Shown here piece by piece: positions 5,586 to 22,401 of a stretch of 64,000 nucleotides of DNA (position 1 is the first letter of the stretch; every line of letters begins with the position of its first letter). The position numbers and the translations under genes were made by a program. Under the pieces are notes generated by a model. That model had not been told where the DNA came from. It ran no database searches and worked only from the letters and a program-made list of their open reading frames with translations. Origin of the DNA: an uncultured beta proteobacterium (GTDB lineage Bacteria > Pseudomonadota > Gammaproteobacteria > Burkholderiales > Burkholderiaceae); contig CAIPQU010000012.1 of NCBI GenBank assembly GCA_903867305.1, positions 5,377 to 69,376 of the forward strand, given 5' to 3'.

Positions 5586-7049
5586 ATGTCAGATACTACA
5601 AACTATTTAAAAATATTACCGCAACATCGCGATCTTTATTATGGTGGCTCTTGGCATCAACCTAAGGGCGGTTATCAAGAAACGATGAATCCTGCCACAG
5701 GCGAATCTTTAGGACTCTGTGCTGAAGCCAATGCTGAAGATGTTGACGCCGCAGTTCAGGCTGCACACGAAGGTTTTTTAGTATGGAAAAAAATTAAACC
5801 TTTAGAACGCGCTAACCTCCTCAAAAAGGTTGCAGCTGTGCTTCGTGAAAACGCCTTTGAACTGGCCATGATTGATGCGGCAAACTGCGGGAACCCTATT
5901 AGCGAAATGCAACGTGACGCACTAATCGCTGCAGCACAAATCGATTTTTATGCTGGTTTAGCCACCGAAATCAAAGGCGAAACTTTGCCTATGGGAGATG
6001 ATATTTTGAATTATTCCGTGCGAGAACCCTATGGTGTTTGTGCACGAATCGTTGCTTATAACCACCCAATTATGTTTACTGCAGCAAAGATGGCTCCGCC
6101 ATTAATTGCAGGTAACACGGTCATCATGAAACCGCCCTATCAAGCTCCTCTGTCAAGCTATCGCATGATGGAGTTAATTGATGGCATTCTCCCCCCAGGT
6201 GTGCTGAACATTATTAGCTCTGGCGCGGTTGGTGGACAAGCACTTGTAAACCATCCCCTAGTCCCTCGACTCTCTCTGATTGGGAGCGTTCCTACTGGAC
6301 GAGCCATTGCAAAAGCAGCGGCAGATCAACTGAAACACGTGACACTAGAATTAGGTGGTAAAAATGCGTGCATTATTTATCCTGATGCTGATTTAAATAA
6401 AGCCATTACAGGTGCTATAAATGGCATGAACTTTACTTGGTGCGGTCAGAGCTGTGGTTCCACATCACGTTTATTCGTTCATTCCTCTATATACCAACAA
6501 GTCATAGACGGTCTTCTCAAAGCTGTTCAGCACTATAAACCAGGAATACCAACGGACATGTCAACCACAATGGGATCCATTGTTTCTAAAATACAGTGGG
6601 AAAAAATCATGCGATATGTTGAGATTGCCAAGGAAGATGGAGCACAACTCATCTATGGTGGGAATGTACCAAAGGACCCTACTCTTGCAAAAGGTTGGTT
6701 TATTGAGCCGACTATTTTTACTGGTGTTACTCAGAATATGCGCATCGCTAATGAAGAAGTTTTTGGTCCCATATTATCTGTCATCAAGTGGGAAGATGAG
6801 GATCAAATGTTTAACCAAGTTAATGCTGTTGAATATGGTTTAACGGCTTCTATTTGGACGACCAATCTTTCCAAAGCGCACCGAGCGGCAAGTCGAGTCC
6901 AAGCAGGATATGTCTGGGTCAACCATTCCAGTAGTCATTTTATTGGAGCATCTTTTGGAGGCTACAAACAATCTGGTATCGGTCGTGAAGAAGGCTTTGA
7001 TGAACTATTTAGCTACTCTCAACACAAAAACGTCCATGTAGTTTTGTAA
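5586..7049 (+). CDS. NAD(P)-dependent aldehyde dehydrogenase
   Basis: LELGGK, GQSC (catalytic Cys) and EEVFGP motifs. Confidence 0.95.
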   Translation: MSDTTNYLKILPQHRDLYYGGSWHQPKGGYQETMNPATGESLGLCAEANAEDVDAAVQAAHEGFLVWKKIKPLERANLLKKVAAVLRENAFELAMIDAANCGNPISEMQRDALIAAAQIDFYAGLATEIKGETLPMGDDILNYSVREPYGVCARIVAYNHPIMFTAAKMAPPLIAGNTVIMKPPYQAPLSSYRMMELIDGILPPGVLNIISSGAVGGQALVNHPLVPRLSLIGSVPTGRAIAKAAADQLKHVTLELGGKNACIIYPDADLNKAITGAINGMNFTWCGQSCGSTSRLFVHSSIYQQVIDGLLKAVQHYKPGIPTDMSTTMGSIVSKIQWEKIMRYVEIAKEDGAQLIYGGNVPKDPTLAKGWFIEPTIFTGVTQNMRIANEEVFGPILSVIKWEDEDQMFNQVNAVEYGLTASIWTTNLSKAHRAASRVQAGYVWVNHSSSHFIGASFGGYKQSGIGREEGFDELFSYSQHKNVHVVL

Positions 7050-7067
7050 TTTATCTTCTCTTACTCA

Positions 7068-8462
7068 TTAAAAAAAAGAATTGATCCACGCGTTGGTTTT
7101 AATGGGTGAGGAAGGATTACTGACAATTTGTTCTCGCAAAGAAACTACCGCATCTTGCAGATGAGGCGCATATTGCATGGCTAAGGTTTGTATTTTTTCT
7201 AACACAGTATGGGCTTCTAGTGGCCTCGCAGAGCTACCCAAAGCGGCCTCACAAGACTCAGAAAATTGTTGGCCATTATTTAACTGGATAGTCACTTTTG
7301 CAGGCCGATCATATGGCCAAGGACGAACATCCTTCATTTCTTGCATCACCACCTTATTTCTAATTTTAGCAATATGGGTGTTAGACATACTTTGATGTAA
7401 GAAATTTTCTGTGGCATGAGCTCCGTTAATGATGGTGGCAGCCGCTGCATGAGGAATCGAAAACTTTGCTGCAAGGGTTGTCGAAGGATTGGCATTATTA
7501 AAGTTCATCCCCATTTTGGATACTTCAATCACGATCGAAGAAATGGGTTCACCACCACGAAGGTTAGGATGTTGATCTAATATTTTTTCAATCGCCTCCA
7601 TCGAAGCATGGGCATGGTGGCAAGAGCCATAAAGCTTATGATAGCCAGCGGTAATAGTCCAATCAGAACCTAAATCCATACTAAGATGTTCAGGTTTTGA
7701 TGTTGCACCAAAACCCATTTGGTACACGTCATATGCCCCTGATGGCGTACCAAAAATATTGGCTTGTGCCATCTCACAGGCAAAATGACCTAACCAAGCC
7801 CCCGCAGCAGGCCAGGCATTTCTGATTAAGGCCCCTTGGATAGGGTGACTATAAGGACCCGGGGAAACCATAGTGCAAGCACCAGTGAGCGCATTCATAA
7901 AAAGGGTTTGATCAAAGCGCATCAAACTTGCATATCCTGCGGCAGAACATACGGCATTAAACACACCGTGCGGATGAAGTCTCGGCAATGTTTCTGGCCA
8001 AGACCTAGCAAACCTCGTGCCTATCTCATAGGCAACTACCACTGCTCTTAACATTTCTTGAATAGATAGATCATTGGCTTGCGCTGCAGCCAAGATTAGG
8101 GGTTGACTTAATGCGCCTGGATGAACTGCGGTTCTTGTATAACCATCATCTAGCTCGTTCCAAGTAATCGCCAAACCGTTTGCTAGTGCAGCGTCCATCA
8201 TCGATGTCTTTGGTCCATTCTTACGAAAAACAGTTGCTGAAGAAGATGATGATTTATGCAGTAGCTGATCGTGATACGTTTGTACCTCTGGCTCGTCAGA
8301 TGCAGATAGTGTAGCCGCAATGTTGTCACCTAAAATCAGAACGGCATTTTGCAAAACATGAGTAGGTATGTCTTCAAAACGAAGACGAGTAGCCCACTCG
8401 GATAGTTTTAATAAATGATCTGCAACACTATTTTTTAACTCGGTTTGGTTCACTGTATTCAT
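7068..8462 (-). CDS. MmgE/PrpD family protein (#1)
   Basis: ELDDG..HPG, HKLYGSCHHAH and AKFSIP motifs. Start set at ATG 8462, which overlaps the CoxL-like stop (ATGA). Confidence 0.88.
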   Translation of the reverse strand: MNTVNQTELKNSVADHLLKLSEWATRLRFEDIPTHVLQNAVLILGDNIAATLSASDEPEVQTYHDQLLHKSSSSSATVFRKNGPKTSMMDAALANGLAITWNELDDGYTRTAVHPGALSQPLILAAAQANDLSIQEMLRAVVVAYEIGTRFARSWPETLPRLHPHGVFNAVCSAAGYASLMRFDQTLFMNALTGACTMVSPGPYSHPIQGALIRNAWPAAGAWLGHFACEMAQANIFGTPSGAYDVYQMGFGATSKPEHLSMDLGSDWTITAGYHKLYGSCHHAHASMEAIEKILDQHPNLRGGEPISSIVIEVSKMGMNFNNANPSTTLAAKFSIPHAAAATIINGAHATENFLHQSMSNTHIAKIRNKVVMQEMKDVRPWPYDRPAKVTIQLNNGQQFSESCEAALGSSARPLEAHTVLEKIQTLAMQYAPHLQDAVVSLREQIVSNPSSPIKTNAWINSFF

Positions 8463-10849
8463 GATGGAGATTTTTGTAAAGCATGCCATATTTTATTGGA
8501 TGTGAAAGGCATTTCTATACCTCGTACCCCAACAGATCCTAAGGCATCCATCATCGCACTGGTGATTGCTGCAGGAGCACCTATAGTTCCTGACTCACCG
8601 CATCCTTTAACCCCCAAAGGATTATGTGTACAAGGTTGAGTTTCATCGGCCTCTGAAAGAAAGTCGGGCAATATATCAGCCCGTGGCATTGCATAATCCA
8701 TAAAAGAACCCGTCATTATCTGACCTGAGTCTGGCTCATAAACAGCACTCTCAAATAAAGCCTGCCCAATACCTTGGGCAATAGCACCGTGCACTTGTCC
8801 TTCAACAATCATCGGATTAATCACTGTACCGACATCATCTATGGCAATGTAAGAAAGCAACTTGGTGACACCAGTTTGAGGATTGATTTCAATCTCACAT
8901 GCTTGCGCACCATTGGACCAAGTCAGATTTGGTGGGTCAAAGAATGCATTTTCGTGAAGCACTGGCTCCATTCCAGGAGGTAAATTATGTGCATAGGTAG
9001 CTGCACGTGCAACTTGGTACCAGTCCAATTTTTCGTTTGATTTGTGAGATATAAAATAACCTAATCCATCATTGACTTGATGCTCAACATCGACCACATC
9101 ACAGCCAAGCAAGTGCGCAGCTAATAACTTCGCTTTATCAATAATTTTTTTACAAGCCATTGTCATCGCTCCACCTGCAATAACCATTGACCTCGATCCA
9201 AAGGTTCCTGTTCCATAAGGAACTCGACCGGTATCACCTTCTACTAATTCAATCATCGATAAAGGCAATCCAATTTTTGAAGCAATCACCTGTGGGAATG
9301 TCGTCGCATGTGCTTGACCATGACTATGCGTACCACACATTAACAAAATGCTTCCATCTGCAGATACACGAATATCTGCAGAATCAAAAAAGCCAGCTCT
9401 AGCACCAAACATCCCTGCATACTTTGAAGGTGCTACACCAGAACTTTCTAGAAAATAACAAATGCCAAACCCACGTATCATGCCATTTTCTTTTGAAATA
9501 GCACGGCGTTTTTCAAATCCAGCAAAGTCAGATGCAACTAGAGCCCGATCGAAAAGACGTTGAAAGTCACCACTGTCATAAATAGGACCTAATGGAGTTG
9601 CATAGGGCATCTCACTCGATTTAATGAAATTTTTACTGCGCAGTTCCATACGATCTATACCAGTTTGTATGGCGGCTTCTTCTATTAATCTCTCTAAAAC
9701 GAAACATGCTTCAGGTCGTCCCGCGCCACGATAGGCGTCTGTTGGAACCGTATTGGTAAACATCGCATCGACTTCTGCAAATACCGCAGGAATTTTATAA
9801 GGTCCTGACAAAACTGCGGTATAGACGGTTGTTGGTACTGCAGCCCCAACCGTAGAAATATAAGCCCCAACAGCGGCATAAGTTTTTACACGAACGCCAA
9901 GGATGTGACCTTTTTCATCTAAGGCCATTTCAGCAGAAGTCATATGATCTCGAGCTTGGTAGTCGCTAATAAATGCTTCACTTCGTGTCGAAGTCCACTT
10001 TAAGGTTAACTTCAATTTTTTACAGGCCCAGGCCAGAATAGTTTCTTCGGGATATAACTTTCCTTTAGTGCCAAAACCACCACCCACATCTGGCGCAATC
10101 ACCCGTATTGAATTTTCCGGAAGATTTAATTGCTCTGAAGTTAATTTACGGATGTGATGTGGTACTTGTGTTGCAGACCAAATCGTGAGCTCATGTCCAT
10201 CGTCTCCTAAAGATGGTGAAACTTGGGCAAGAACAGCTCTTGGTTCAATAGCAGCACAAACAATACGATGATTTTTAATTTCGACACGCACATGATGTTT
10301 AGCTTTAGCAAAAGCCGCATCCACAGGCTCTTTCGCTCCGCGGTGAAATTTCACACAAAGATTATTCGGCGCTTGTGAATGCAATTGTGGGGCAGATTCT
10401 TTTGCCGCGTCTCGAACATTCACAACAGCATCAAGGACTTCATAATCTACTATGATGAGTTCCGTAGCGTCCAATGCCTGATGGGCTGTTTTTGCAACCA
10501 CCATCGCAACAATTTCACCAACGTGGCGAACGCGATCAATCGTGATGGAATACCGAGGGGGCTCATTCATTTGAGAACCCTCTGCGCCAGGAATGATCCA
10601 CAGTGGCGTCATTTTACCAACGCCATCATTGAACATATCCTGTCCAGTCAGTACCGCATATACACCAAGCGCTTTTTGTGCGTCTGAGACATTGATGCTC
10701 TTAATAAGTGCATGTGCATGTGGCGACCGTAAGAAAGCACAGTAATATGTATTTTCAGGAAGAAGATCTGCAACAAATTGCCCCTTACCCTTTAATAATC
10801 GATTATCTTCCCGACGTAAGACCGTTTGACCAATTCCTTGAGGATGCAT
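8459..10849 (-). CDS. Molybdenum hydroxylase large subunit (xanthine dehydrogenase family, CoxL form II-like)
   Basis: 796 aa with DVGGGFGTK, AYRGAGRPE (form II signature, not AYXCSFR), HGQAHAT, GSRS and GVKGCGE. Confidence 0.92.
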   Translation of the reverse strand: MHPQGIGQTVLRREDNRLLKGKGQFVADLLPENTYYCAFLRSPHAHALIKSINVSDAQKALGVYAVLTGQDMFNDGVGKMTPLWIIPGAEGSQMNEPPRYSITIDRVRHVGEIVAMVVAKTAHQALDATELIIVDYEVLDAVVNVRDAAKESAPQLHSQAPNNLCVKFHRGAKEPVDAAFAKAKHHVRVEIKNHRIVCAAIEPRAVLAQVSPSLGDDGHELTIWSATQVPHHIRKLTSEQLNLPENSIRVIAPDVGGGFGTKGKLYPEETILAWACKKLKLTLKWTSTRSEAFISDYQARDHMTSAEMALDEKGHILGVRVKTYAAVGAYISTVGAAVPTTVYTAVLSGPYKIPAVFAEVDAMFTNTVPTDAYRGAGRPEACFVLERLIEEAAIQTGIDRMELRSKNFIKSSEMPYATPLGPIYDSGDFQRLFDRALVASDFAGFEKRRAISKENGMIRGFGICYFLESSGVAPSKYAGMFGARAGFFDSADIRVSADGSILLMCGTHSHGQAHATTFPQVIASKIGLPLSMIELVEGDTGRVPYGTGTFGSRSMVIAGGAMTMACKKIIDKAKLLAAHLLGCDVVDVEHQVNDGLGYFISHKSNEKLDWYQVARAATYAHNLPPGMEPVLHENAFFDPPNLTWSNGAQACEIEINPQTGVTKLLSYIAIDDVGTVINPMIVEGQVHGAIAQGIGQALFESAVYEPDSGQIMTGSFMDYAMPRADILPDFLSEADETQPCTHNPLGVKGCGESGTIGAPAAITSAMMDALGSVGVRGIEMPFTSNKIWHALQKSPS

Positions 10850-10979
10850 GTAATTCCTTAAATATAAAAAAGGTGCTATATATGTTAATTTATTAAAAAA
10901 TAATTAAATCAAAAAATAATGTTATCTTAGTTTTAAATACATCACAAGAAAGTCAAAAAAAATACCACTTGGAGCCTTT

Positions 10980-11948
10980 ATGAATCTCATGAAAAATTGT
11001 TTGATCTCGTTAATGATTTTGTTATTTGGTACATTCTCAGCGTTGAGCATTGCCCAGCAAAAAATGAAAATGGGATTGTTTATCGCATCTTCTGCACTTC
11101 CCTACTTTATCGCTAAAGAAAGGGGTTATTTTGCAGCAGAGGGTTTAGATGTTGAAGGAGTTCCCCTAGCAACTCAACCACTAGTCGTTCAGGGTATAGT
11201 CACAGGTGATTTAGATGCGGGATCGAATTTATTATCTCTTGAGGGTGCAAATATTAATGCTATTCGACCCGATACGTTGAAATATATTTCATTAAATTGC
11301 CAAAACGTCAAATATCAACTTGAGGCTTATGTGGTTCCTGTAAACAGCCCTATTAAGACTATAGCTGAATTGAAGGGTAAAAGAATCATGTCTGCGCCTG
11401 GACCTGGAAATCTTTTCGTAGCTAAAGGGGTTCTTAAAGCTGTTGGCTTAGATGAAAAAGATTATCAAATGCAAGAACAACAAATGAGCGTTCACATTGG
11501 TGCGTTGCAGTCTGGCCAATATGATGCGGTTTACACCCTTGAACCGATCGTCAGCATGATGGTTTCTCAAGGTATTGGCCGTAAGCTTGAGAGCGGTGTG
11601 ATTGCAAAATATATGCTCGGAAAACCTGATGCTTGCGCAGTCCTTGGTGGCGGAGTTCTCAGTTCTAAATTTATTAAAGAGTATCCACAAGCTGCGGAAA
11701 GATTTGCAAGAGCGTGGGCAAAAGCGTTGAACGATGGCAACAATGATCCTAAAGCACGTGATTTACTTGTCAAATACATGAACACGTCAGCAAGTATTGC
11801 TCAGACGGTTCCTTTATCACACTACAATATGATTAAAGACTTAAAACCTCAGGATCTTGCAGATTTTCAGAATTTAATTGATCAAGCAACTGCATATGGA
11901 CTCGTCAAAGAGAAAATAGATGCTAAATCCTTCATCAAAGTATATTAA
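10980..11948 (+). CDS. NitT/TauT (NMT1/SsuA-like) ABC transporter substrate-binding protein
   Basis: Signal peptide, ALPYFIAKERGYFAAEGLDVE and IKTIAELKGKRI motifs; first gene of an ABC trio. Confidence 0.88.
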   Translation: MNLMKNCLISLMILLFGTFSALSIAQQKMKMGLFIASSALPYFIAKERGYFAAEGLDVEGVPLATQPLVVQGIVTGDLDAGSNLLSLEGANINAIRPDTLKYISLNCQNVKYQLEAYVVPVNSPIKTIAELKGKRIMSAPGPGNLFVAKGVLKAVGLDEKDYQMQEQQMSVHIGALQSGQYDAVYTLEPIVSMMVSQGIGRKLESGVIAKYMLGKPDACAVLGGGVLSSKFIKEYPQAAERFARAWAKALNDGNNDPKARDLLVKYMNTSASIAQTVPLSHYNMIKDLKPQDLADFQNLIDQATAYGLVKEKIDAKSFIKVY

Positions 11949-11953
11949 ATTTT

Positions 11954-12718
11954 ATGACATTGAAAAAATCACTAGAGCCTCTAGAACCATTAACTGGGGC
12001 TTTAGTTTTTATCTTTATTTGGTGGCTTTGCACTTCGCTAAAGTTGGTTGATCCCATCTTATTACCATCCCCGCAAGCATCAGCTAAAGCCATGTGGACT
12101 GGCCTTACTACTGGCACTTTAATGCACGACATGATCATCACGATTCGGCGCACCATTTATGCTTTTTTAATTGCTGTTGTGATTTGTGTGCCTCTTGGAC
12201 TTGTTTTAGGTAGTTCAGCTCGAATTTATCGATCTTGTGAATTTGTGATTGATTTTTTTCGCTCAACACCAGCTTCCGCCCTATTCCCCCTATTTTTAGT
12301 TATTTTAGGCGTAGGTGAAAATACTAAAGTCGCTGTTGCTGCTTTCGGTGCGGGATTATTAATTCTTTTTAATACTGCCTATGGTGTGATGAATGCGAGA
12401 AAAGTCCGACAAGCTGCTGCTAGAGTCATGGGAGCGTCAAGTTTGAAAATACTTGGTGGAGTAACACTACTTGAATCACTCCCACAAACTTTCGTTGGTA
12501 TGCGCTCTGGAATATCCTTTTCTTTAGTGATTGTCATCGTTGCTGAGATGTTCATTGGCTCCACAGATGGTCTTGGCCAAAGGGTCATCAATGCACAAAT
12601 GATTTTTAATATGCCGGAAATGTATGCGACGATTTTTAGCGCTGGAGCATTAGGCTATGGATTAAATCTGCTCTTTATTCTTGCAGAAAGACACTTCGTT
12701 CATTGGGGTGGTAAATAA
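11954..12718 (+). CDS. NitT/TauT ABC transporter permease
   Basis: Hydrophobic; LLPSP, EAA-loop-like QAAARVMGAS and AEMF..GLG. Confidence 0.92.
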   Translation: MTLKKSLEPLEPLTGALVFIFIWWLCTSLKLVDPILLPSPQASAKAMWTGLTTGTLMHDMIITIRRTIYAFLIAVVICVPLGLVLGSSARIYRSCEFVIDFFRSTPASALFPLFLVILGVGENTKVAVAAFGAGLLILFNTAYGVMNARKVRQAAARVMGASSLKILGGVTLLESLPQTFVGMRSGISFSLVIVIVAEMFIGSTDGLGQRVINAQMIFNMPEMYATIFSAGALGYGLNLLFILAERHFVHWGGK

Positions 12719-12748
12719 TCGTGCGTTTCTTAAAACAATAAAGACATC

Positions 12749-13510
12749 ATGCCTGCCCATATCCAAATCCGTGGTTTAAATAAATCTTTTGCTGGACAAA
12801 CGCTGTATTCCAATTTCGACCTAGACCTTCCTCACGGCAAAATTACTTCTATCTTTGGTCCAAATGGTTGTGGAAAATCCACACTGATTAACATGGTTTC
12901 AGGTTTGACTCCCATGGATAGCGGTCAAGTTCTTTTTGATGGAAAAACACTAGCTCAAACTGTGATTGGCTATGTCTTTCAAAATTACCGCGACGCTCTT
13001 TTCCCTTGGAAAAAAGCCATCGATAATATTAAATATCCACTTCAAATAGCGAAGAAGCCTTCTGGTGAGATTGAAGCAAGAACACAAGAACTGATTCAAT
13101 CTTTTGATGTTCGATTTGATTTAAATCGTTATCCCTACGAATTATCTGGTGGTCAGCAACAGTTGATTTCGATTATGAGAGCCCTAGCACCTCATCCAGA
13201 AGTACTCTTTTTAGATGAGCCTTTTTCTGCGCTGGATTATGAAATGACACTATTTATGCGAGATAAACTTCAGGCGATTTTTGAAGCAACAAAAACCACC
13301 ATGATTCTTGTCTCTCATGATCTCGATGAGGCTGTTTATTTATCTGATCACATTCTCATGCTGACACGGCGTCCTACGAGAATTGCACGCGAAATAGAAT
13401 TTACAGCACCAAGACCTCGTCAACCCATTACGCTGACTTCTGAATTGTTCAATCAAGTTAAAGGGCAATGCCTAGAAATCTTCCAAAAAGAGATTAAAGT
13501 AATAGATTAG
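12749..13510 (+). CDS. ABC transporter ATP-binding protein
   Basis: Walker A GPNGCGKS, signature LSGGQQQ, Walker B LFLDEPF and H-loop VSHD. Confidence 0.96.
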   Translation: MPAHIQIRGLNKSFAGQTLYSNFDLDLPHGKITSIFGPNGCGKSTLINMVSGLTPMDSGQVLFDGKTLAQTVIGYVFQNYRDALFPWKKAIDNIKYPLQIAKKPSGEIEARTQELIQSFDVRFDLNRYPYELSGGQQQLISIMRALAPHPEVLFLDEPFSALDYEMTLFMRDKLQAIFEATKTTMILVSHDLDEAVYLSDHILMLTRRPTRIAREIEFTAPRPRQPITLTSELFNQVKGQCLEIFQKEIKVID

Positions 13511-13543
13511 AATCATGAAACATTATAAAAAAGGAGATATCCT

Positions 13544-14020
13544 ATGAGCATCCAAGTCTCGATGACCATCAATGGCCAAGCCATTTCACATGAGGTCGAA
13601 GAGCGCACGCTATTAGTGAACTTCATTCGTGATCATTGCCGCCTGACAGGGACTCATGTGGGTTGTGATACTGCTCAATGTGGTGCCTGCACGATTCATC
13701 TTAACGGTCGCGCCATTAAAAGTTGTAGCATTTTGGCGATGCAGGCACAGGGTGCTGCAATTACGACTATTGAAGGTGTATCAATCGATGACCAATTGCA
13801 TCCAATGCAAGAAGCATTTAAAACCCATCACGGTTTGCAATGTGGTTATTGCACACCCGGAATGATTATGAGCGCGATTGATCTGGTAAACAATTTCCCT
13901 AACCCAAGTAAAGAACTGATTCGTGAACAACTCGATGGGAATTTGTGTAGATGTACTGGTTATCACAATATTGTTGTAGCGATTCAAGAAGCCGCAAAAG
14001 TAATGAGTCCTTCTAACTAA
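13544..14020 (+). CDS. Molybdenum hydroxylase small [2Fe-2S] subunit (CoxS-like)
   Basis: [19 protein letters not shown] and CRCTGY motifs. Confidence 0.95.
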
Positions 14021-14039
14021 GATTATTTCGGAGCATTTT

Positions 14040-14834
14040 ATGTATCCTTTTTCGTTTCATCATACAAAATCGATTCCTGAGTCGGTATCGTTAAAAAAAG
14101 AACTTTCAGAGGCCAAATATATTGCTGGTGGTCAAAGTTTAGTTGGGGTTCTGAAACTCAGGCTTGATAAACCTTCGGAACTAATCAACCTAGGATCAAT
14201 ACGTGAACTTTCAGGTATTTGTATCGAAGGTAAAACTCTGACGATTGGAGCAATGACTAGACATGCTGAAGTTGCTGCTTCATCTGATGTGAAATCTTGT
14301 ATTCCTGGAGTAGCTCAATTAGCAGGTCTGATAGCAGATCGAATGGTTCGTAATATGGGTACGATTGGTGGATCTGTTGCAAATAATGATCCTTCGGCTG
14401 ATTATCCCGCTGCTGTATTAGGATTAAATGCCACCATTATTACCAATCAACGCGAAATACAAGCGGATGATTTCTTTATTGGTATGTTTGAAACAGCTCT
14501 TGAACCAAGTGAATTAATTCAATCAATTCGCTTTACTGCGCCAATTAAATCAGCCTACGCAAAATTCAAACACCCTGCATCAAGGTATGCCGTAGTCGGA
14601 GTTTTTGTTGCCCAATTTCCAAATGAAGTTCGAGTTGCTGTTACCGGTGCAGGAGCTTCCGTTTTCCGTCATACAGAAATGGAAAAAGCTCTTTCTAAAG
14701 ATTTTTCTACAAGTGCTATTGAACCCATTCAGATTTCTGCTCAAGGTCTTAACTCTGACTTTTTTGCGGATTCACAATACAGAGCCCATTTAATGAAATC
14801 AATGGCAATACAAGCCGTGAATAACGCAAAATAA
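14040..14834 (+). CDS. Molybdenum hydroxylase FAD subunit (CoxM-like)
   Basis: [21 protein letters not shown] and KHPASRYA motifs. Confidence 0.94.
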
Positions 14835-14851
14835 CATTACTAGGAATTAAT

Positions 14852-15946
14852 ATGGCAATTGACGTCGTTAAAGTTGAAATTAAAAGTGTCTCAGATGCAT
14901 CGGGTCTGATACATCATATTGAATCTGGCAGGTTCAAGGCTGATGAAGTTATTGCTGTTATTGGAAAAACCGAAGGTAATGGCGGCGTGAATGATTTCAC
15001 AAGAATCTTATCCGATCAAGCTTTTCGGGAGGTTCTGTTAAAACATGGTACTAGAACAGCGGCCCAGATTCGTGAAATCCCCATGGTTTGGTCAGGTGGT
15101 TGTGATGGTGTCATCACTCCCCATGCAACCATCTTTGCTCAAGTTCAAGATTCAACTACTTCTCAAGAAAGTAGATTAGTCATTGGGACTGCCCTCAGCC
15201 CACGCATTTATCCAGAAGATATTGGACGACTTTCAATGGTAGAAAAAGTCAAGCAAGGTGTTTTACTTGCGATGAAACAGGCAGGGATTGATGACCCTAA
15301 AGATGTTCATTATGTACAAACGAAAACACCACTATTGACTATCGAAACTGTCCTCGACGCTAAATCTCGCGGTAAAACATTAGCTTGTGAAGTACATGAC
15401 TCGATGGGAGTCTCTAATGGTACTACTGCACTAGGGATTGCCGTTGCTCTTGGCGAAATTGCTATGCCTACTGAAGATGATATATGTGAGAATCTGGATT
15501 TATATTCTTCCGTATCTTCTTGCTCTTCAGGAGTTGAATTAGATTTTGCACAAATTGTTCTTCTTGGAAATAAATCGGGTGCTGGCGGAAACTTTAAGAT
15601 AGGTCATAGTGTGATGCGAGATGCGATTGACATCGACGGTATCTATGATGCTATTCGCTCAGCCGGTTTAGATCTTCCTGAACGTCCTAGATCAACAGAC
15701 TTAAAAGGAAAACTCGTCAATTGCTTCATCAAGTGTGAAGCGGACCATACTGGCAAACTTCGTGGTCGCCGTCAAATCATGTTAGATGACTCTGATGTAC
15801 ATCATCACCGACATTCTAAAGCAGCTGTTGGAGGCGTTGCTGCTGCTGCGATTGGTGATCCCGCTGTATTTGTCTCTGTGGATGCGATGCATCAAGGTCC
15901 ACGCGGTGGTGGCCCTGTGATTGCTATTGTCGATTTAGGAAATTAA
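14852..15946 (+). CDS. Ring-opening cyclic amide hydrolase (AtzD/barbiturase family), barbiturase-type
   Basis: [63 protein letters not shown] and [11 protein letters not shown] motifs. Confidence 0.9.
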
Positions 15947-15971
15947 CAGCTTATTTCATTAACAGCTGATT

Positions 15972-16451
15972 TTATGAATAGGAATTAGGGTCAAAAAAAC
16001 TTGTTCCTGCAATATAACGTTTTCCATCAGACATATCTGGAAGCGGCCCTTTTTCAATTTTTCCTTCAAAGGTTAATTCGAGTTGCACGCCGCTGGGATC
16101 ATAGACAAATAATTGCCATATGGTCGTGTTAGGAACTAAGAACTCTCGATATGGCAATCCCATCTCGATAAATTTTTCTCTAAATTCATGATACCCAGAA
16201 CATGAAAAAGATATATGATCAATTGCAGCAGTACCTAATGGAGTCTTACCATCCGCCCCCAAAGCAGGACCTCCAGCATAACAATGAAGTATCGCTTGCC
16301 CCCCAGGGATCGGAGCTGCAAGCCAAGCACCAGGAAAGCCAAAATCAGGGCGATAAATATCTATCAAACCTAAAACCTTGGTATAAAACTCTTTCGTTGC
16401 CTCTAAATTATTTGTTTTTACAGCGATATGAAATAAACCATTCGTTATCAT
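15972..16451 (-). CDS. VOC (glyoxalase/bleomycin-resistance-like) protein
   Basis: FHIAVKT, LHCY, IDHISF and DPSGVQLEL paired beta-alpha-beta-beta-beta metal-ligand pattern. Confidence 0.85.
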   Translation of the reverse strand: MITNGLFHIAVKTNNLEATKEFYTKVLGLIDIYRPDFGFPGAWLAAPIPGGQAILHCYAGGPALGADGKTPLGTAAIDHISFSCSGYHEFREKFIEMGLPYREFLVPNTTIWQLFVYDPSGVQLELTFEGKIEKGPLPDMSDGKRYIAGTSFFDPNSYS

Positions 16452-16464
16452 GAACTACCCCTAT

Positions 16465-16848
16465 TTAAACTTTATCGATCAAACTAACATGGGCTGAAAC
16501 AATTCGCCAACCATCCGCAGTTCTTACCCAGGTTTGCGATTGACGTCCAATTTTTCCAGGAACAGTTTCTCTTTCAAATAAGGTATTAGCAGTTGCTAGA
16601 TCATTTCCAAAAGTTGTAATAACAGTTTTACTGAGACTTCTTAATAATCCTTTTGATGGTCTAGCCGCTCTAAAAGCAGCAATTTCGCCAAAGCCATAAA
16701 GATTTTCATTCATTCCATAACGGATCACTAGGGGGTTATTCCAAAAGGAATCATCTAAGATATTAATCTTATTGTGAATCAAAGCGTCCTCATATTGATC
16801 AAATAACGCTTGAACTTCAGCTACTACATTAGGGATGTTAATTTGCAT
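16465..16848 (-). CDS. AtzH-like / HpxZ (DUF3225, NTF2-like) protein
   Basis: 127 aa with FDQYEDAL, IRYGMNENLYGFGEIAAFR and GRQSQTWVR..GWRIVSAHVS. Confidence 0.9.
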   Translation of the reverse strand: MQINIPNVVAEVQALFDQYEDALIHNKINILDDSFWNNPLVIRYGMNENLYGFGEIAAFRAARPSKGLLRSLSKTVITTFGNDLATANTLFERETVPGKIGRQSQTWVRTADGWRIVSAHVSLIDKV

Positions 16849-17055
16849 TGATAGATCTCAAATTCATAAGTGGTAAAGTTTCATTCTAGTATAAGCCAAG
16901 CAGAAACATGATAGCCTGACTAAGAATAATCCTGAATTGATTTTGTCGGCAAAAGATACTAAGCTTACGATCATCAATTTAATGATTGAGTAGTTTTTAT
17001 CAAGGCTGGTAGACTATTCACAAATTATATCTTTTAAAAAGAAACGAGACGATCT

Positions 17056-18090
17056 ATGAAACAAATAATGAAAAGCCTAATTCTCTTATTCGGTTTTTTT
17101 ATCTTGGGTACTGCTACTGCCCAAACAAAACCACTTGATCTTAATATTTCTCAAGTTGGATCATTCCATATTGGAGGAAGATTTGTTGAAGTTTCTGGCA
17201 AACCAACGAAAGAGGTAGTCTTTAGTCCGGGAAGTGCTCCAGCAAAAATAGATCCTAATGGTAAATATCTTGTGGAGCAAATGTATGTGCAGTACTTTAT
17301 TCCCAAAGATGTTAAACATCAATTGCCAATATTGCTTTGGCATGGCGGTGGCCTATCAGGGGTGACTTATGAAACCACTCCTGATGGAAGGCCCGGATGG
17401 CAGCAATATTTTATCAGTCAAGGTTGGAAGACTTATGTCTCTGATGCGGTTGAAAGAGGACGCTCGGGTTGGGCGTCGCCTGATATTTGGCCTTCTGATC
17501 CTCAATTTTTAACGATTGATAACCCATGGCATCGATTCCGAATTGGTGCTAATGCTTGGAATGATGACCCTGTCAAAAGAGCACAATACCCCGGTAGCCA
17601 ATTCCCTCCAGAAGGCTATTTAAACTTTATGCGTCAAGTCGTTCCCCGTTGGACTACCACCGATGAGGCAACGATTGCAGCCTATACAGAATTAGTGGAT
17701 AAGGTATGTCCATGTATCGTTCTCGTTCATAGTCAGGGTGGGCAATTTGGTCAAAAAGTAGCTCAAGCACGACCAGATAAAGTCAAAGCGCTGATTTTAG
17801 TTGAACCTGCGGGATTTGGTGATCCTAATAAGGCGAGCGCACTGAAGAATATTCCCATTCTCACCATCTATGGAGACTATATTGATATCGATTCACGTTG
17901 GCCAAAGATTCGGCAAACACAGATGGAGTTGAATCAAAAATATATCGCCGCAGGGGCTAGTGTCGAGGTGATCAACCTGCCTGAAATAGGCATCAAGGGC
18001 AACTCCCACATGATGATGATGGACCGTAATAACCTTCAAATTGCAGGGATCATAGAAGACTGGCTAAAGAAAAAAGGTTTTAGAGATTAG
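17056..18090 (+). CDS. Exported alpha/beta hydrolase (esterase-like)
   Basis: Signal peptide, HGGG oxyanion motif, nucleophile elbow VHSQGG and C-terminal GNSHMMM His. Confidence 0.85.
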   Translation: MKQIMKSLILLFGFFILGTATAQTKPLDLNISQVGSFHIGGRFVEVSGKPTKEVVFSPGSAPAKIDPNGKYLVEQMYVQYFIPKDVKHQLPILLWHGGGLSGVTYETTPDGRPGWQQYFISQGWKTYVSDAVERGRSGWASPDIWPSDPQFLTIDNPWHRFRIGANAWNDDPVKRAQYPGSQFPPEGYLNFMRQVVPRWTTTDEATIAAYTELVDKVCPCIVLVHSQGGQFGQKVAQARPDKVKALILVEPAGFGDPNKASALKNIPILTIYGDYIDIDSRWPKIRQTQMELNQKYIAAGASVEVINLPEIGIKGNSHMMMMDRNNLQIAGIIEDWLKKKGFRD

Positions 18091-18119
18091 CATTTAAATT
18101 AGAAAAGTATCAAGATGAA

Positions 18120-18995
18120 TTATTTAAATAATCCGTCGAGATACTTTTCATAATCGTAATAATTAATACTTTCGTATAACTCATTTCTAGTTTGCATTTG
18201 AGCAATTAAATCTTTCTGCGTTCCTTTAGAACGGATCGTTTGATAGACATTCTCGGCAGCTTTATTCATTGCTCTAAAAGCAGATAATGGATACAGCGCA
18301 ATACTAACGCCAACCGATCTTAGCTCTTCAATCGTAAACATTGGAGTAGAACCAAACTCAGTAATATTAGCCAAAATGGGTACTTTTGTTTTTTTTACAA
18401 ATTGTTGATATTGATTGAGTTCTGTAATCGCTTCTGGAAAAAGCATATCAGCACCAGCTTCAACATAAGCCAAAGATCGATCAATTGCAGCATTTAATCC
18501 CTCAGCGGCTAATGAGTCCGTTCTAGCCATAATGACAAAATCGTCATTTGACTTTGCATCCACAGCAGCCTTGATGCGGTCGACCATTTCTTCGCAACTC
18601 ACAATTTGCTTATTTGGACGATGTCCACAACGCTTAGCTCCAACCTGATCTTCAATATGAATAGCAGCTACTCCAGCTTTTTCTAGCGAACGTACTGTTC
18701 TTGCAACATTAAATGCAGAAGAACCAAATCCAGTATCCACATCGACAAGTAATGGCAAAGGACATACATCGGTAATTCTTCTCGCATCAATGAGTACATC
18801 CTCTAAGTTGGAAATACCCAGGTCTGGCATACCTAAAGACCCTGCAGATACACCTCCTCCAGAGAGATAGATCGCTTTGTAACCAGCGCGTTGCGCCAAT
18901 AAGGCATGATTTGCATTAATGGCACCAATCACTTGTAATGGGGACTCTGCCTGTATAGCTTGACGAAAAGCGCTTCCTGAACTGATACGACTCAT
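18120..18995 (-). CDS. prpB: 2-methylisocitrate lyase
   Basis: [33 protein letters not shown] and MARTD motifs. Confidence 0.92.
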
Positions 18996-19022
18996 AGACT
19001 GACCTTTATAAAAAATGAAGCT

Positions 19023-19985
19023 TTAATCTTCTTTCATATTCGATTTTTTAATAATGGGCTCAAGTCGTCCTTTTTCTTCTGTCAAAAATTTCACAAAATC
19101 TGCTCTAGAACCAGGTGATGGCTCAATACCTTGTGGAACTAAACGATTCGTGACGGCTTCTGTTTTCAATCCCGCATTAATAGCTTGATTCATTTTTTCT
19201 AAAACATCATCTGGCGTACCTTTAGGTGCGTACAAACCAGCCCAGTGACCAATAAAAACGTCTGAAAAACCTAACTCTTTCGTGGTTGGAACATTCGGTA
19301 ATGCAGATATTCTTTTATTCCAAGTCGATGCAATCGCTTTTAATTTTCCACCCTGAATCTGTGGTATCACCACGGGACTTGCCTCTGAGGTTGCATCCAC
19401 TTGACTTGAGATCACCGCCAGCATACCCTCTGAGCCACTCTTATAAGGAATTATTTCATATTTACCCCCAGTACTCAATTTCAGCATTTCAGCCACGAAA
19501 TGAGGCGTGCTTCCAGTTCCTGCGGTAGAAAAATTAATCCCTTTAGGCTCTTTGGATACGGCAATTAAATCTTTTAATTGATTAATCTTTGAATTAGCGG
19601 CAACTACAATAATTGATGGACTAACCGCTAAGAAACTTACAGGAATTAAATCACCCTCTTTATAAGGCATGGTTGACTTGATGAGAGCATTGGTTAAAGT
19701 ACCACTAGCACCAACAAAAAAGGTATAACCATCATTCGCACTTTTCGCAACATAATCGGCACCTAAAACAGATCCCGCCCCAGGCTTATTTTCAACAATA
19801 ATGGTTTGTCCAAGTTGTTTTGACGCAGACTCTGCAGCAACTCTAGCAACTAAATCATTTGCCCCACCAGGTCCAAAGCCAACAACAAATTTAATTGTTC
19901 GGTTAGGCCAAGGATCTGCAGCATACGAGAGCTGAAAAAGTGTCATACCTAACATTAGGCTAATTAAAGATATTCGTAATTTCAT
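19023..19985 (-). CDS. Bug/TctC substrate-binding protein
   Basis: WPNRTIKFVVGFGPGG, ENKPGAG and IPYKSG motifs with signal peptide. Confidence 0.93.
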   Translation of the reverse strand: MKLRISLISLMLGMTLFQLSYAADPWPNRTIKFVVGFGPGGANDLVARVAAESASKQLGQTIIVENKPGAGSVLGADYVAKSANDGYTFFVGASGTLTNALIKSTMPYKEGDLIPVSFLAVSPSIIVVAANSKINQLKDLIAVSKEPKGINFSTAGTGSTPHFVAEMLKLSTGGKYEIIPYKSGSEGMLAVISSQVDATSEASPVVIPQIQGGKLKAIASTWNKRISALPNVPTTKELGFSDVFIGHWAGLYAPKGTPDDVLEKMNQAINAGLKTEAVTNRLVPQGIEPSPGSRADFVKFLTEEKGRLEPIIKKSNMKED

Positions 19986-20079
19986 TTTTACACTCTCAAA
20001 GGGCTATGCATAACAAATTGTAAACGTGATTCCACTTTTAATAAGGGCTTACTTATTTCCTTCTTAATACAAACTTTAA

Positions 20080-22401
20080 TCATCTTTTTAATGGCCCAAA
20101 GTGAGGCGGAGAAACCCTTCTTTTTGAGGATGCTTCATACGCTGAGGCTACCCGTATTAATCGGTCTTCCATTCCGGGCTCTACACGGAATACCAAGGAG
20201 AATGGCAAGCCGGCTCCTTCAATCTTCGTGGGCTCTTGACTCGCTTTAGCAACGTATTTTTGTCGATCCTCTGATAACTCAAACCTAGCATCGTAAGCCG
20301 TGTCAACAAATCCAGCTGGAACCAATATCTCGGTGAGACCTGCATTCGGGCCATACAACAACTCGTTCCGAAGATCATTGATTTCTCCTGGCTCATCGGG
20401 CCATCCAATTTTTGCTGGAGGAAGTGGCGTATGCAGACGAACTAAAACATCCAACTTATTCTCCAGTATGACCATCATATCCACTCGTCGTAATAACTCT
20501 CTGAGCATAATCCGTTCATCAATCCCCTGCCGACCACCTAAAGGATTTCTAGGATCCGTAGTCTCTTCCCAGTTTTTAAATGCGGAGCGTTGATCATCTC
20601 CCCAAAACTTTGATCGCTGATTTAATGTAGGCCAATCAATCATCGATTCATTAAAACCAAGGGCTTTCCAATCTTGAGCTCGACGACTCAAATATTGCTT
20701 GATATGAAATCGAAATGAATTCGCTAAAATTTGATGCTGAATAGTCGCAATGGTTAAATTCTTTGGAGGTTCAATATTTAAATCAGCGAGCTCCACAAAA
20801 TAATCAATGGATGTCATTTTTCCTGTACCAAATACTTTTCCTGGAGCAAATTCTGTTGGCTGTATTTGTGCAGCAAATTCAGGAAATAATGGCTGACCAG
20901 TATCATTTAAGCGAAATAATATATCTGGCATAAATACAGGAAGCAGTCTTGCTAATGCCTTTGTAAAATCAATATCCATCTGCTCCATCGAGCTATCTTT
21001 TTTCCAAAGATAATGCGAAGACTCGACTAAAGTTGCACCTAAGTGCTCTCCAAGAACTGTTTTAATCTCCTGAGTTGCCTTCGTAATGATGGGCTCAACT
21101 GATTGAATACCGGGATTGACCATTGATTCACGAATCACACCGATGCGCGTACCTTTGAGAAACCCTGCCGTATTACTTTGAATGATATGGTCTTGGTATC
21201 GTGTCTGTAATACGGATGAACGTGGAACGGTGGTATACGGATCTCGAGGATCGTAATAACCCTTTTCTTCGTCCTTGAGTGCATCTAGGATACGAGCACA
21301 GTCATCTAGACTCCGTCCTAGAATACCCGTACGATCACAATAAATATCTGCACCAATTGCTCCTCCATCAAATCCTAACATTGCCTTATGAGGCAATATC
21401 AATGCTAAAGAATTATGGTTAGCGGGCCCACGTGTCGACATCCGTGTCTCTTCACCAAGACTTGCCATTACCAAATTAGCACTGACGGATACACCCGATC
21501 CTGAACTTGAGCCTAGTGAAGCAGAACGAGTTGTATCATAAGGATTCGATGGATTACCACCCCAGGTAGAGCGTTGATAACCTAGAACAGAAGGCAATAT
21601 TTGCTGAGGATAATTTTTGCCGCCTGGATCACCTGCACGGCCATTGTATTCAGTCATAACAGCCTTCGCTAAAATAATCGCACCTTTTTTACGAAGTTGA
21701 TCAACCAAAATATGGTCTCTCGCTGGAAAATCAATATCATAAGCAGCATCTGCGCCACCCGTTGATCTCATATCCTTCGTATCAAAAGCATCTTTAAAGG
21801 AAAAAGTAACGCCATAAAGGGGCATTAAATCTAGATCAGGTTGATTACCATATTGCTGATCTAATGCTGCTGCCTGTTCGAGAGCATCGGGATAATGCCG
21901 AAACATTTCACACATGGGAGGTGCTCCAATAGGCAAAGGACCTTTTGAGGGATGTAAGTCGTAATCACCTCGGCAGGTAACCGATCGCTCACCACGCAGG
22001 TTAATGGTTGATAAAGCATTTAATTGTCCAGCATTGGGTTTACCCACGATCATGCCAAACTGCTGTTTCACAGAGGGATCAGAGGCTGTCGCTTCCATTC
22101 GGCCAAACTCAAGTTCAGGTCCCATATAAGCATCTAAATTAGGAAATAAATCACTTGCTTTAAGCGTTTGCTGATCAAACTGAATCGCTTGCCCTCCCCG
22201 AACAACTCCATGCTCAGCTGGAAGATTACTCCCATCTCTGGTTACTAATAAGCTCGAAGGACCATTAAAGTGACGAATTCGCTCTAAATATTGTTGAACA
22301 ATCTCAACACATGTCGTTCGGCCCTCTTGAATAGCAAGATGCAATTGAGCAATAGTAGATTCTTCTACCTGAAAATGTTGATTTGACTGACTTTGTGACA
22401 A
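20080..22401 (-). CDS. Large amidase-signature family protein with atypical motif
   Basis: FSFKDAFD (Lys), NPYDTTRSASLGSSSGSG and EETRMSTRGPA in place of TDTGGSIRxPA; 773 aa. Confidence 0.8.
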   Translation of the reverse strand: MSQSQSNQHFQVEESTIAQLHLAIQEGRTTCVEIVQQYLERIRHFNGPSSLLVTRDGSNLPAEHGVVRGGQAIQFDQQTLKASDLFPNLDAYMGPELEFGRMEATASDPSVKQQFGMIVGKPNAGQLNALSTINLRGERSVTCRGDYDLHPSKGPLPIGAPPMCEMFRHYPDALEQAAALDQQYGNQPDLDLMPLYGVTFSFKDAFDTKDMRSTGGADAAYDIDFPARDHILVDQLRKKGAIILAKAVMTEYNGRAGDPGGKNYPQQILPSVLGYQRSTWGGNPSNPYDTTRSASLGSSSGSGVSVSANLVMASLGEETRMSTRGPANHNSLALILPHKAMLGFDGGAIGADIYCDRTGILGRSLDDCARILDALKDEEKGYYDPRDPYTTVPRSSVLQTRYQDHIIQSNTAGFLKGTRIGVIRESMVNPGIQSVEPIITKATQEIKTVLGEHLGATLVESSHYLWKKDSSMEQMDIDFTKALARLLPVFMPDILFRLNDTGQPLFPEFAAQIQPTEFAPGKVFGTGKMTSIDYFVELADLNIEPPKNLTIATIQHQILANSFRFHIKQYLSRRAQDWKALGFNESMIDWPTLNQRSKFWGDDQRSAFKNWEETTDPRNPLGGRQGIDERIMLRELLRRVDMMVILENKLDVLVRLHTPLPPAKIGWPDEPGEINDLRNELLYGPNAGLTEILVPAGFVDTAYDARFELSEDRQKYVAKASQEPTKIEGAGLPFSLVFRVEPGMEDRLIRVASAYEASSKRRVSPPHFGPLKR

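Follow-up and report, generated by a model that had tools for sequence, protein, structure and literature searches.

A barbiturase-clade hydrolase gene among molybdenum hydroxylase and ABC importer genes of a freshwater betaproteobacterium: most likely a variant of the oxidative pyrimidine pathway, of uncertain substrate

The window analyzed here, a stretch of 64,000 nt from contig CAIPQU010000012.1 of an uncultured freshwater betaproteobacterium, contains a divergent gene cluster with genes for a three-subunit hydroxylase of the xanthine dehydrogenase (XDH) family, an ABC importer and a ring-opening hydrolase of the barbiturase clade (Table 1). The source genome is a 3.1-Mb metagenome-assembled genome (MAG) of the Burkholderiales, with 41% GC and rated as 100% complete. 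Genes were called from the list of open reading frames (ORFs) together with Pfam and NCBIfam scans of the window proteins, and these bore out all the gene identities and coordinates in a preliminary description of this DNA, which had proposed a module for the uptake, hydroxylation and ring opening of a pyrimidine or a related N-heterocycle.

Table 1. Genes and features of the locus, with positions in the window.
Feature	Positions	Strand	Domains and matches
MmgE/PrpD-family protein	7068-8489	-	Pfam MmgE_PrpD_N and _C
XDH/CoxL-family large subunit, molybdopterin-binding	8459-10849	-	Pfam Ald_Xan_dh_C, MoCoBD_1, MoCoBD_2
Divergent intergenic region, 130 bp, presumed control region for both transcription units	10850-10979		
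Periplasmic binding protein, NMT1/THI5-SsuA family, of a NitT/TauT-type ABC importer	10980-11948	+	Pfam NMT1
ABC permease	11954-12718	+	Pfam BPD_transp_1
ABC ATPase	12749-13510	+	Pfam ABC_tran
[2Fe-2S] small subunit of hydroxylase	13544-14020	+	Pfam Fer2_2, Fer2
Flavin adenine dinucleotide (FAD)-binding medium subunit of hydroxylase	14040-14834	+	Pfam FAD_binding_5
Barbiturase-clade ring-opening amidohydrolase, Toblerone fold	14852-15946	+	PF09663, 5HWE match
VOC (glyoxalase/dioxygenase-fold) protein	15972-16451	-	Pfam Glyoxalase, E 1.8e-7
AtzH-like/HpxZ NTF2-fold protein	16465-16848	-	Pfam AtzH-like 184 bits; NCBIfam HpxZ 185 bits

The gaps in the plus-strand run measure 5, 30, 33, 19, and 17 nt, as in the 5–33 nt range reported previously; the last two separate the co-oriented [2Fe-2S], FAD, and barbiturase genes, between which a terminator scan found no terminator-like site. 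The gene for the large subunit is divergent from this run, and those for the VOC and AtzH-like proteins are convergent with it. For the MmgE/PrpD gene, the most likely start codon is the ATG at 8462, where it overlaps the stop codon of the large-subunit gene as ATGA; the longest ORF, with an overlap of 31 nt, is less probable, because relatives begin at the methionine of 8462. The divergent intergenic region contains consensus-like −35/−10 pairs in both directions (10888–10861 on the minus strand and 10893–10920 on the plus strand), although in the promoter and terminator scans such sites were no more common than expected by chance (from shuffled sequence, for the promoter-like pairs), and an Rfam scan of positions 6900–18200 gave zero matches. 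The whole arrangement was found again, with 81–98% protein identity, in three MAGs (L001–L003) and three lake-type metagenome contigs (L144–L146); the locus is real and conserved, its arrangement being kept in these six related contigs. This conservation, together with the 17-nt spacing, argues for the co-expression of the FAD subunit and the barbiturase.

Judged from its sequence, the hydrolase is a genuine barbiturase-clade enzyme, belonging to Group VI of Peat et al. (2013), and its earlier label of barbiturase-type was well founded. Its best match in the PDB is the barbiturase from Rhodococcus erythropolis, 5HWE (495 bits, ca. 68% identity), which scores 194 bits better than any of the cyanuric acid hydrolases there (at most 301 bits), and family PF09663 matches residues 5–361 with 459 bits. 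The three Ser-Lys dyads (K39/S81, K158/S225-226, and K294/S342) and R51, equivalent to the invariant Arg54, are all present. At five positions (195, 321, 325, 345, and 346 in AtzD numbering) the two enzyme types have different residues, namely R, T, R, G, and G in cyanuric acid hydrolases and N, H, K, V, and S/A in barbiturases (Peat et al., 2013; PMC3758960); the hydrolase has the barbiturase residue at four of them (N189, H319, K323, and V343). The fifth, corresponding to AtzD position 346, is Asp344 instead of Ser or Ala; the equivalent Asp occurs in all 81 proteobacterial-type sequences, which makes it a trait of the clade and not private to the window gene. The resulting N-H-K-V-D pattern is present in 80 of 80 related proteobacterial loci, whereas Embleya and Nonomuraea have N-H-K-V-A and 5HWE has N-H-K-V-S. 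In the tree, the hydrolase falls in a barbiturase clade of 20 rows, which includes 5HWE and has a support of 100 in the Shimodaira-Hasegawa-like approximate likelihood ratio test (SH-aLRT) on a stem of 1.08 substitutions/site; the closest kin of the hydrolase outside its own lineage are alphaproteobacterial (79–80% identity). A cyanuric acid hydrolase (AtzD/TrzD) was rejected since Arg195, Thr321, Arg325, Gly345, and Gly346 are replaced by N, H, K, V, and D. The hydrolase nevertheless exceeds the cut-off of the NCBIfam equivalog NF052395, "cyanuric acid amidohydrolase" (442 vs. 360 bits), and public records often give this same name to barbiturase-clade proteins, which is probably a systematic mis-annotation.

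We surveyed the neighborhoods of barbiturase genes in species-representative genomes, comprising 80 loci with 74–91% identity, mainly from Alphaproteobacteria (Xanthobacteraceae, Bradyrhizobium, Pseudolabrys) and Betaproteobacteria. The commonest arrangement, of which no description was found in the literature searched, is LysR-HyuA-HyuB-Bar-SBP-ATPase-Perm-amidase (Bar, barbiturase; SBP, substrate-binding protein; Perm, permease). An NMT1-type ABC transporter was the most frequent neighbor, in 53/80 loci, followed by HyuAB (44/80), an amidase of 474 aa (40/80), XDH-family subunits (22/80), and Upp and/or DUF1688 (10/80); conversely, MmgE/PrpD, VOC, and HpxZ genes were confined to three close relatives of the window. 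The architecture had been described as unfamiliar, and this holds for these last three genes but not for the importer, which is the normal partner. The binding protein from the window shows 35–47% identity to those encoded beside other barbiturase genes, and its permease and ATPase are 57–67% and ca. 57–67% identical, respectively, to their counterparts. Among actinobacteria, Rhodococcus qingshengii, with a barbiturase 99% identical to 5HWE, has the order XdhC, PucR, carboxyltransferase, CoA-transferase III, PucR, Upp, Bar, amidase, aminotransferase, FAD, FeS, large subunit, HyuA; Embleya contains HyuAB, Bar, and an XDH-family trio inside 12 kb, and Nocardioides contains HyuAB, a carbamate-kinase-type gene, Bar, and CoA-transferase III. 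Genes for a three-subunit XDH-family enzyme thus recur beside barbiturase, and do so also in the Rhodococcus lineage, which served to define the pathway.

The HyuA/HyuB genes, from the ATP-dependent hydantoinase/oxoprolinase family, lie directly upstream of Bar in the 44 proteobacterial loci and accompany it also in Embleya, Rhodococcus, and Nocardioides; they have no role in the classical three-step pathway. Likewise, Upp (uracil phosphoribosyltransferase, UPRTase) and DUF1688 flank barbiturase operons in Bradyrhizobium-type genomes (L005, L033, L042, L046, L061, L068, L073, and L075); DUF1688 is the family of yeast URC4, from the URC uracil pathway.

The biochemistry of the oxidative pyrimidine pathway has been known for about 70 years. 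In Rhodococcus erythropolis it comprises uracil/thymine dehydrogenase (EC 1.17.99.4), barbiturase (EC 3.5.2.1), and ureidomalonase (EC 3.5.1.95) (Soong et al., 2001, 2002, cited in PMC3758960). In the literature searched only barbiturase has a gene; the other two enzymes appear as activities only, no gene being assigned to either of them, and searches on barbiturase with molybdenum and on HpxZ did not turn up such an assignment either. The Pfam domains of the hydroxylase from the window correspond to the three subunits of uracil/thymine dehydrogenase (large with molybdenum cofactor, medium with FAD, and small with 2Fe-2S). The large subunit matches CoxL (8UEM, 513 bits), quinoline 2-oxidoreductase Qor (429 bits), and KdhL (400 bits) in the PDB, and is under every NCBIfam equivalog cut-off; in NCBIfam each of the three subunits scores best with a glyceraldehyde dehydrogenase subunit, also below cut-off. 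It contains an active-site loop of the form-II CoxL type, AYRGAGR (residues 372–378), and the catalytic Glu within GCGESG, at about residue 752. A form-I aerobic CO dehydrogenase was rejected because of the score with TIGR02416 (545 bits vs. a cut-off of 991) and because of this loop, which in form-I CoxL is the Cys-containing AYRCSFR.

Trees of the large subunit, which the preliminary description had suggested as a means of placing the enzyme, separated three barbiturase-linked clades, A, B, and C, with an SH-aLRT support of 100 each for A and B. Clade A comprises Rhodococcus, Embleya, the alphaproteobacterial loci and one copy from the betaproteobacterial MAG L060; clade B comprises the enzyme from the window, its near relatives, a second copy from L060 (69% identity), and orthologs from family f61; and clade C comprises two Pseudolabrys loci. 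The window enzyme, with its form-II loop, is placed in clade B, apart from the barbiturase-linked enzyme of Rhodococcus. For the classical uracil/thymine dehydrogenase, the clade A trio beside the Rhodococcus barbiturase is the prime candidate, ahead of the enzyme from the window. The XDH/CoxL-family large-subunit genes of the source genome, at least 12, lie on contigs C2, C49, C50, C56, C78, C84, C105, C156, C158, and C12, with HyuA/HyuB-like pairs adjoining those on C49 and C78. A paralog sister to clade A, on contig C84, was considered as the true uracil dehydrogenase and rejected, since its neighbors (CoxG, enoyl-CoA hydratase, MFS, and P450 genes) have no link to pyrimidines.

For the binding, VOC, and MmgE/PrpD-family proteins, PDB sequence searches retrieved only remote, uninformative relatives. 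The MmgE/PrpD-family protein cannot be assigned to 2-methylcitrate dehydratase PrpD (NCBIfam PrpD, 34.8 bits vs. a cut-off of 950) and shows only a distant likeness to IDS-epimerase and cis-aconitate decarboxylase; its gene is syntenic with the f61 orthologs. The VOC protein is a core member of the clade-B module, with the same convergent arrangement after the FAD subunit gene in the f61 genomes. The AtzH-like protein exceeds the cut-off of NCBIfam HpxZ (135 bits), matches PF11533, and aligns with AtzH (6BJT) over its whole length (138 bits), with AtzH residues Tyr22, Arg46, and Arg73 conserved as Y19, R43, and R70. These three residues are needed for the activity of AtzH, a 1,3-dicarboxyurea decarboxylating amidohydrolase, and atzG-atzE homologs cluster with AtzH (PMC6219798). 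No AtzE-type gene adjoins the AtzH-like gene of the window, and there is no AtzG-sized ORF in the 207-bp gap. The AtzH-like protein is a candidate decarboxylating amidohydrolase, which might act on an N-carboxylated ureide or amide.

The genome encodes a urease and, on contig C50, a malonyl-CoA decarboxylase gene adjoining one for a CoA-transferase III (G000:C50:4400-6435) that is 39% identical to that from the Rhodococcus locus; this pair is likely a route from malonate to acetyl-CoA, and from these genes the genome can be predicted to use both urea and malonate. Additionally, the 1.9-kb contig C97 (positions 256–1650) encodes an amidase-signature enzyme 46% identical to the barbiturase-adjacent amidase from R. 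qingshengii, which is a candidate ureidomalonase with its genomic context lost. The genome has neither the Rut pathway nor the reductive one: RutA and dihydropyrimidinase did not reach their cut-offs, and the same held for UPRTase and allophanate hydrolase.

From the gene content, the operon-like spacing, the barbiturase-clade identity of the hydrolase and the recurrent neighborhood we infer every reaction and the substrate of the locus, which is most likely a variant of the oxidative pyrimidine pathway. On balance, it probably serves the oxidative catabolism of a pyrimidine-type N-heterocycle, through hydroxylation to a barbiturate-type ring that is opened by the barbiturase. The NMT1-type ABC importer would take up the ring compound and the Mo/FeS/FAD hydroxylase would oxidize a ring C-H to give a 2,4,6-trioxo (barbiturate-type) ring, which the barbiturase would then hydrolyze to ureidomalonate or a 5-substituted analog. 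This ureide would be converted to malonate (or methylmalonate) plus urea or ammonia, probably with the participation of the AtzH-like protein and of an amidase encoded elsewhere, and the products would feed the urease and the pair of CoA-transferase and malonyl-CoA decarboxylase. Since ureidomalonate is the CH2 analog of 1-carboxybiuret, an AtzE-like deamidation followed by an AtzH-like decarboxylation, yielding malonamate, is chemically plausible by pure analogy. Uracil or thymine is the leading single candidate substrate, which we put forward tentatively and as no more than a candidate because the hydroxylase belongs to clade B, not to clade A, and has other partners elsewhere; nothing points to the cyclic imides named in the preliminary description. 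The proposal of a module for uptake, hydroxylation and ring opening is supported in part, since it agrees with the clade of the barbiturase, the co-oriented [2Fe-2S] and FAD genes, the recurrence of XDH-family trios and transporter, and the capacity for urea and malonate; clade B, the f61 pairing and the barbiturase-less relative, detailed below, speak against it.

Several observations weigh against the oxidative pyrimidine reading. The large subunit from the window is not orthologous to the barbiturase-linked enzyme from Rhodococcus, to which it is 33% identical (and ca. 34% to the alphaproteobacterial clade A enzymes), but belongs to the separate, well-supported clade B. In L060, large subunits from clades A and B flank HyuA-HyuB-Bar on either side and, given the presence of both, the two clades are probably not redundant. 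Also, the genome carries at least 12 XDH-family large subunits, and the locus has none of the usual partners of barbiturase (474-aa amidase, HyuAB, and Upp). Furthermore, in f61 the orthologous module has as its partners, in place of a barbiturase, a cyanuric-acid-hydrolase-like enzyme and a flavin monooxygenase, and two metagenome contigs (L147 and L149), with a large subunit 84% identical to that of the window, contain the module, including the AtzH-like and VOC genes, with no barbiturase gene. The barbiturase looks like a recent add-on to an older, uncharacterized N-heterocycle module.

This module, which we designate the clade-B module, consists of MmgE/PrpD, the large subunit, the ABC importer, the FeS and FAD subunits and VOC, with the AtzH-like gene in some lineages. 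In a survey of 401 genomes of Burkholderiales, clade-B orthologs with 71–73% identity appeared only in one other family, f61, and three genomes from the same genus as the source (1.7–2.1 Mb) have neither the clade-B enzyme nor any AtzD-family gene. The f61 loci (L113–L117) show the order FAD monooxygenase, AtzD-like, CoA-transferase III, <MmgE, <large subunit, SBP, permease, ATPase, <alpha/beta hydrolase, FeS, FAD, <VOC, amidase (arrowheads mark orientation). Their products are 58–59% (MmgE), 71–72% (large subunit), 76–79% (SBP), 80–82% (permease), 79–81% (ATPase), 69–76% (FeS), 57–59% (FAD), and 68–72% (VOC) identical to those from the window. The best PDB match of the f61 AtzD-like protein is a cyanuric acid hydrolase (313 bits vs. 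231 for barbiturase); it has the signature RRQRGG (R-Q-R-G-G) and forms a clade of its own. This R-Q-R-G-G subclade (L113–L117, L129, and L131) is distinct from barbiturases and from ordinary cyanuric acid hydrolases (R-T-R-G-G); its members invariably have an HpxO-like FAD monooxygenase as partner.

Members of the AtzD family were found in only 26 of the 401 genomes (6.5%); all six genomes containing a clade-B large subunit with at least 71% identity have an AtzD-family gene 2–5 kb away (Fisher p = 4e-8, not corrected for ancestry). The clade-B hydroxylase lies beside Toblerone-fold hydrolases in three gene orders: that of the window; that of L060 (Bar> <MoL-B SBP>, where MoL-B is the clade-B large subunit); and that of five f61 genomes, with the AtzD-like and CoA-transferase genes next to <MmgE <MoL-B. 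On at least three occasions the clade-B module has become linked to a Toblerone-fold hydrolase, and the co-occurrence of a barbiturase with this Mo-hydroxylase in other genomes, on which the preliminary description had staked its proposal, was found both in this lineage and in L060. In L147 and L149 the order is HpxZ, VOC, <FAD, <FeS, <ATPase, <Perm, <SBP, large subunit, MmgE, and the gap between FAD and VOC is only 166 bp. The barbiturase gene from the window fills this FAD-VOC gap, empty in L149, and an alignment of the junction revealed no insertion scars. The absence of barbiturase from both contigs indicates that it is dispensable for the module, and its presence in the window resembles a recent insertion.

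One alternative is that the clade-B module degrades another N-heterocycle, common to f61 and to the barbiturase-less relatives, which would not be a nucleobase but perhaps a hydroxypyrimidine, an azapyrimidine or triazinedione, or a carboxylated heterocycle, with each lineage attaching a different Toblerone-fold hydrolase to the oxidized ring. We consider this unlikely, even though the eight-gene core is 57–82% identical between this lineage and f61, with the binding protein more conserved than the hydroxylase, and although f61 adds an HpxO-like flavin monooxygenase, the RRQRGG AtzD-type hydrolase, an alpha/beta hydrolase, an amidase and a CoA-transferase; the barbiturase-less version and the position of the hydroxylase outside the Rhodococcus-linked clade point in the same direction. 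However, the hydrolase has full barbiturase character and barbiturase is reported as specific (PMC4051656), so that the product of the module in this lineage must be barbiturate-like, and CoA-transferase III also flanks barbiturase in Rhodococcus and Nocardioides, which would fit a malonate-type end product in f61 too. More broadly, the clade-B hydroxylase, importer, MmgE/PrpD, VOC, and AtzH-like proteins might be a self-standing, undescribed pathway for N-heterocycles with alternative Toblerone-fold openers, a possibility that we hold as doubtful. If so, the hydroxylase would be a second, non-orthologous uracil/thymine dehydrogenase, or would act on a pyrimidine or azapyrimidine that is so far not known to support growth, and the AtzH-like and MmgE/PrpD proteins would replace the ureidomalonase step, still without a gene.

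It is quite unlikely that the functions are independent, with the barbiturase in the FAD-VOC gap merely riding on the operon transcript, the Mo enzyme oxidizing an unrelated substrate, possibly an aldehyde, and barbiturate coming from another source. The presence or absence of the barbiturase at exactly this junction among close relatives, the alphaproteobacterial affinity of the hydrolase, the glyceraldehyde dehydrogenase matches of the three subunits and the 12 paralogous large subunits would all be compatible with such independence; conversely, three independent gene orders link clade B to a family present in so few genomes of the order, the spacing and conservation described above favor co-expression, and the transporter family is itself a typical partner of barbiturase. 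That the locus is a fragment of cyanuric acid or s-triazine catabolism, with AtzD and AtzH, is very improbable, because the name and equivalog score of the hydrolase and the full-length resemblance of the AtzH-like protein to AtzH from Pseudomonas sp. ADP, with conserved catalytic residues, are outweighed by the loss of the defining residues of cyanuric acid hydrolases (two Arg and two Gly, here replaced by Asn, Lys, Val, and Asp), by the much better match to barbiturase, and by the lack of atzE, atzG, atzF, and biuH nearby and of an allophanate hydrolase in the genome.

Under the preferred reading of an oxidative pyrimidine pathway, the closest known system is that from Rhodococcus, with which the window shares a barbiturase-clade hydrolase with the same specificity residues and a three-subunit XDH-family enzyme encoded with it. 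The two differ in the clade of the large subunit and in the arrangement of the subunits, which are contiguous in Rhodococcus (FAD-FeS-L) but split in the window, with L divergent and the other two in the transporter operon. Additionally, the adjacent amidase, Upp, HyuAB, CoA-transferase with carboxyltransferase, PucR, and XdhC from Rhodococcus are all absent from the window, which contains instead the ABC importer, MmgE/PrpD, VOC, and AtzH-like genes. Similarly, the proteobacterial LysR-HyuA-HyuB-Bar operons have a barbiturase from the same subclade (74–81% identity, N-H-K-V-D) and the same ABC transporter family, whereas HyuAB, the 474-aa amidase and LysR are absent from the window, where the transporter order is SBP-Perm-ATPase and the hydroxylase is from clade B instead of A. 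The atzDGEHF cluster from Pseudomonas sp. ADP also combines a Toblerone-fold hydrolase with an AtzH-type NTF2 protein whose Tyr22/Arg46/Arg73 equivalents are kept in the window (PMC6219798); however, the hydrolase of the window is of the barbiturase type, AtzE, AtzG, and AtzF are missing, and a Mo hydroxylase and an importer are present. CoxL, Qor, and Kdh (6-hydroxypseudooxynicotine dehydrogenase) share the domain set with the hydroxylase, whose AYRGAGR loop is typical of CoxL homologs that do not oxidize CO, but the enzyme falls below the curated cut-offs and its neighborhood points to a pyrimidine- or triazine-like substrate.

Comparison of these loci yields concrete candidate genes for an orphan enzyme, although the stronger candidate, from clade A, sits in other genomes, and reveals a second hydroxylase module that is joined to different ring-opening hydrolases depending on the lineage. 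A search for barbiturase-type homologs retrieved 7,651 protein clusters (E ≤ 1e-100), and these genes are widespread in Alpha- and Betaproteobacteria, although the enzyme was earlier regarded as rare and actinobacterial. The comparison also flags the naming of barbiturases as cyanuric acid hydrolases, probably a systematic error of annotation.

Outside the cluster, a 344-aa alpha/beta-hydrolase with a signal-peptide-like N-terminus is encoded on the plus strand (17056–18090), divergent from the AtzH-like gene; it matched no NCBIfam model and is kept in L002 and L003. PrpB (18120–18995, minus strand) is a bona fide methylisocitrate lyase (525 bits vs. a cut-off of 353), which was considered as a link to thymine-derived methylmalonate and rejected, because it lies in a separate minus-strand unit (18120–22401) and no connection could be made. 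This unit also encodes a TctC receptor and an unusual 773-aa protein, with an amidase-signature match only in residues 169–462 and a paralog 82% identical on contig C135. Upstream of the locus, positions 213–2557 on the minus strand encode an aldehyde:ferredoxin oxidoreductase (AFOR) and a 4Fe-4S ferredoxin-like subunit, of the tungsten-enzyme type.

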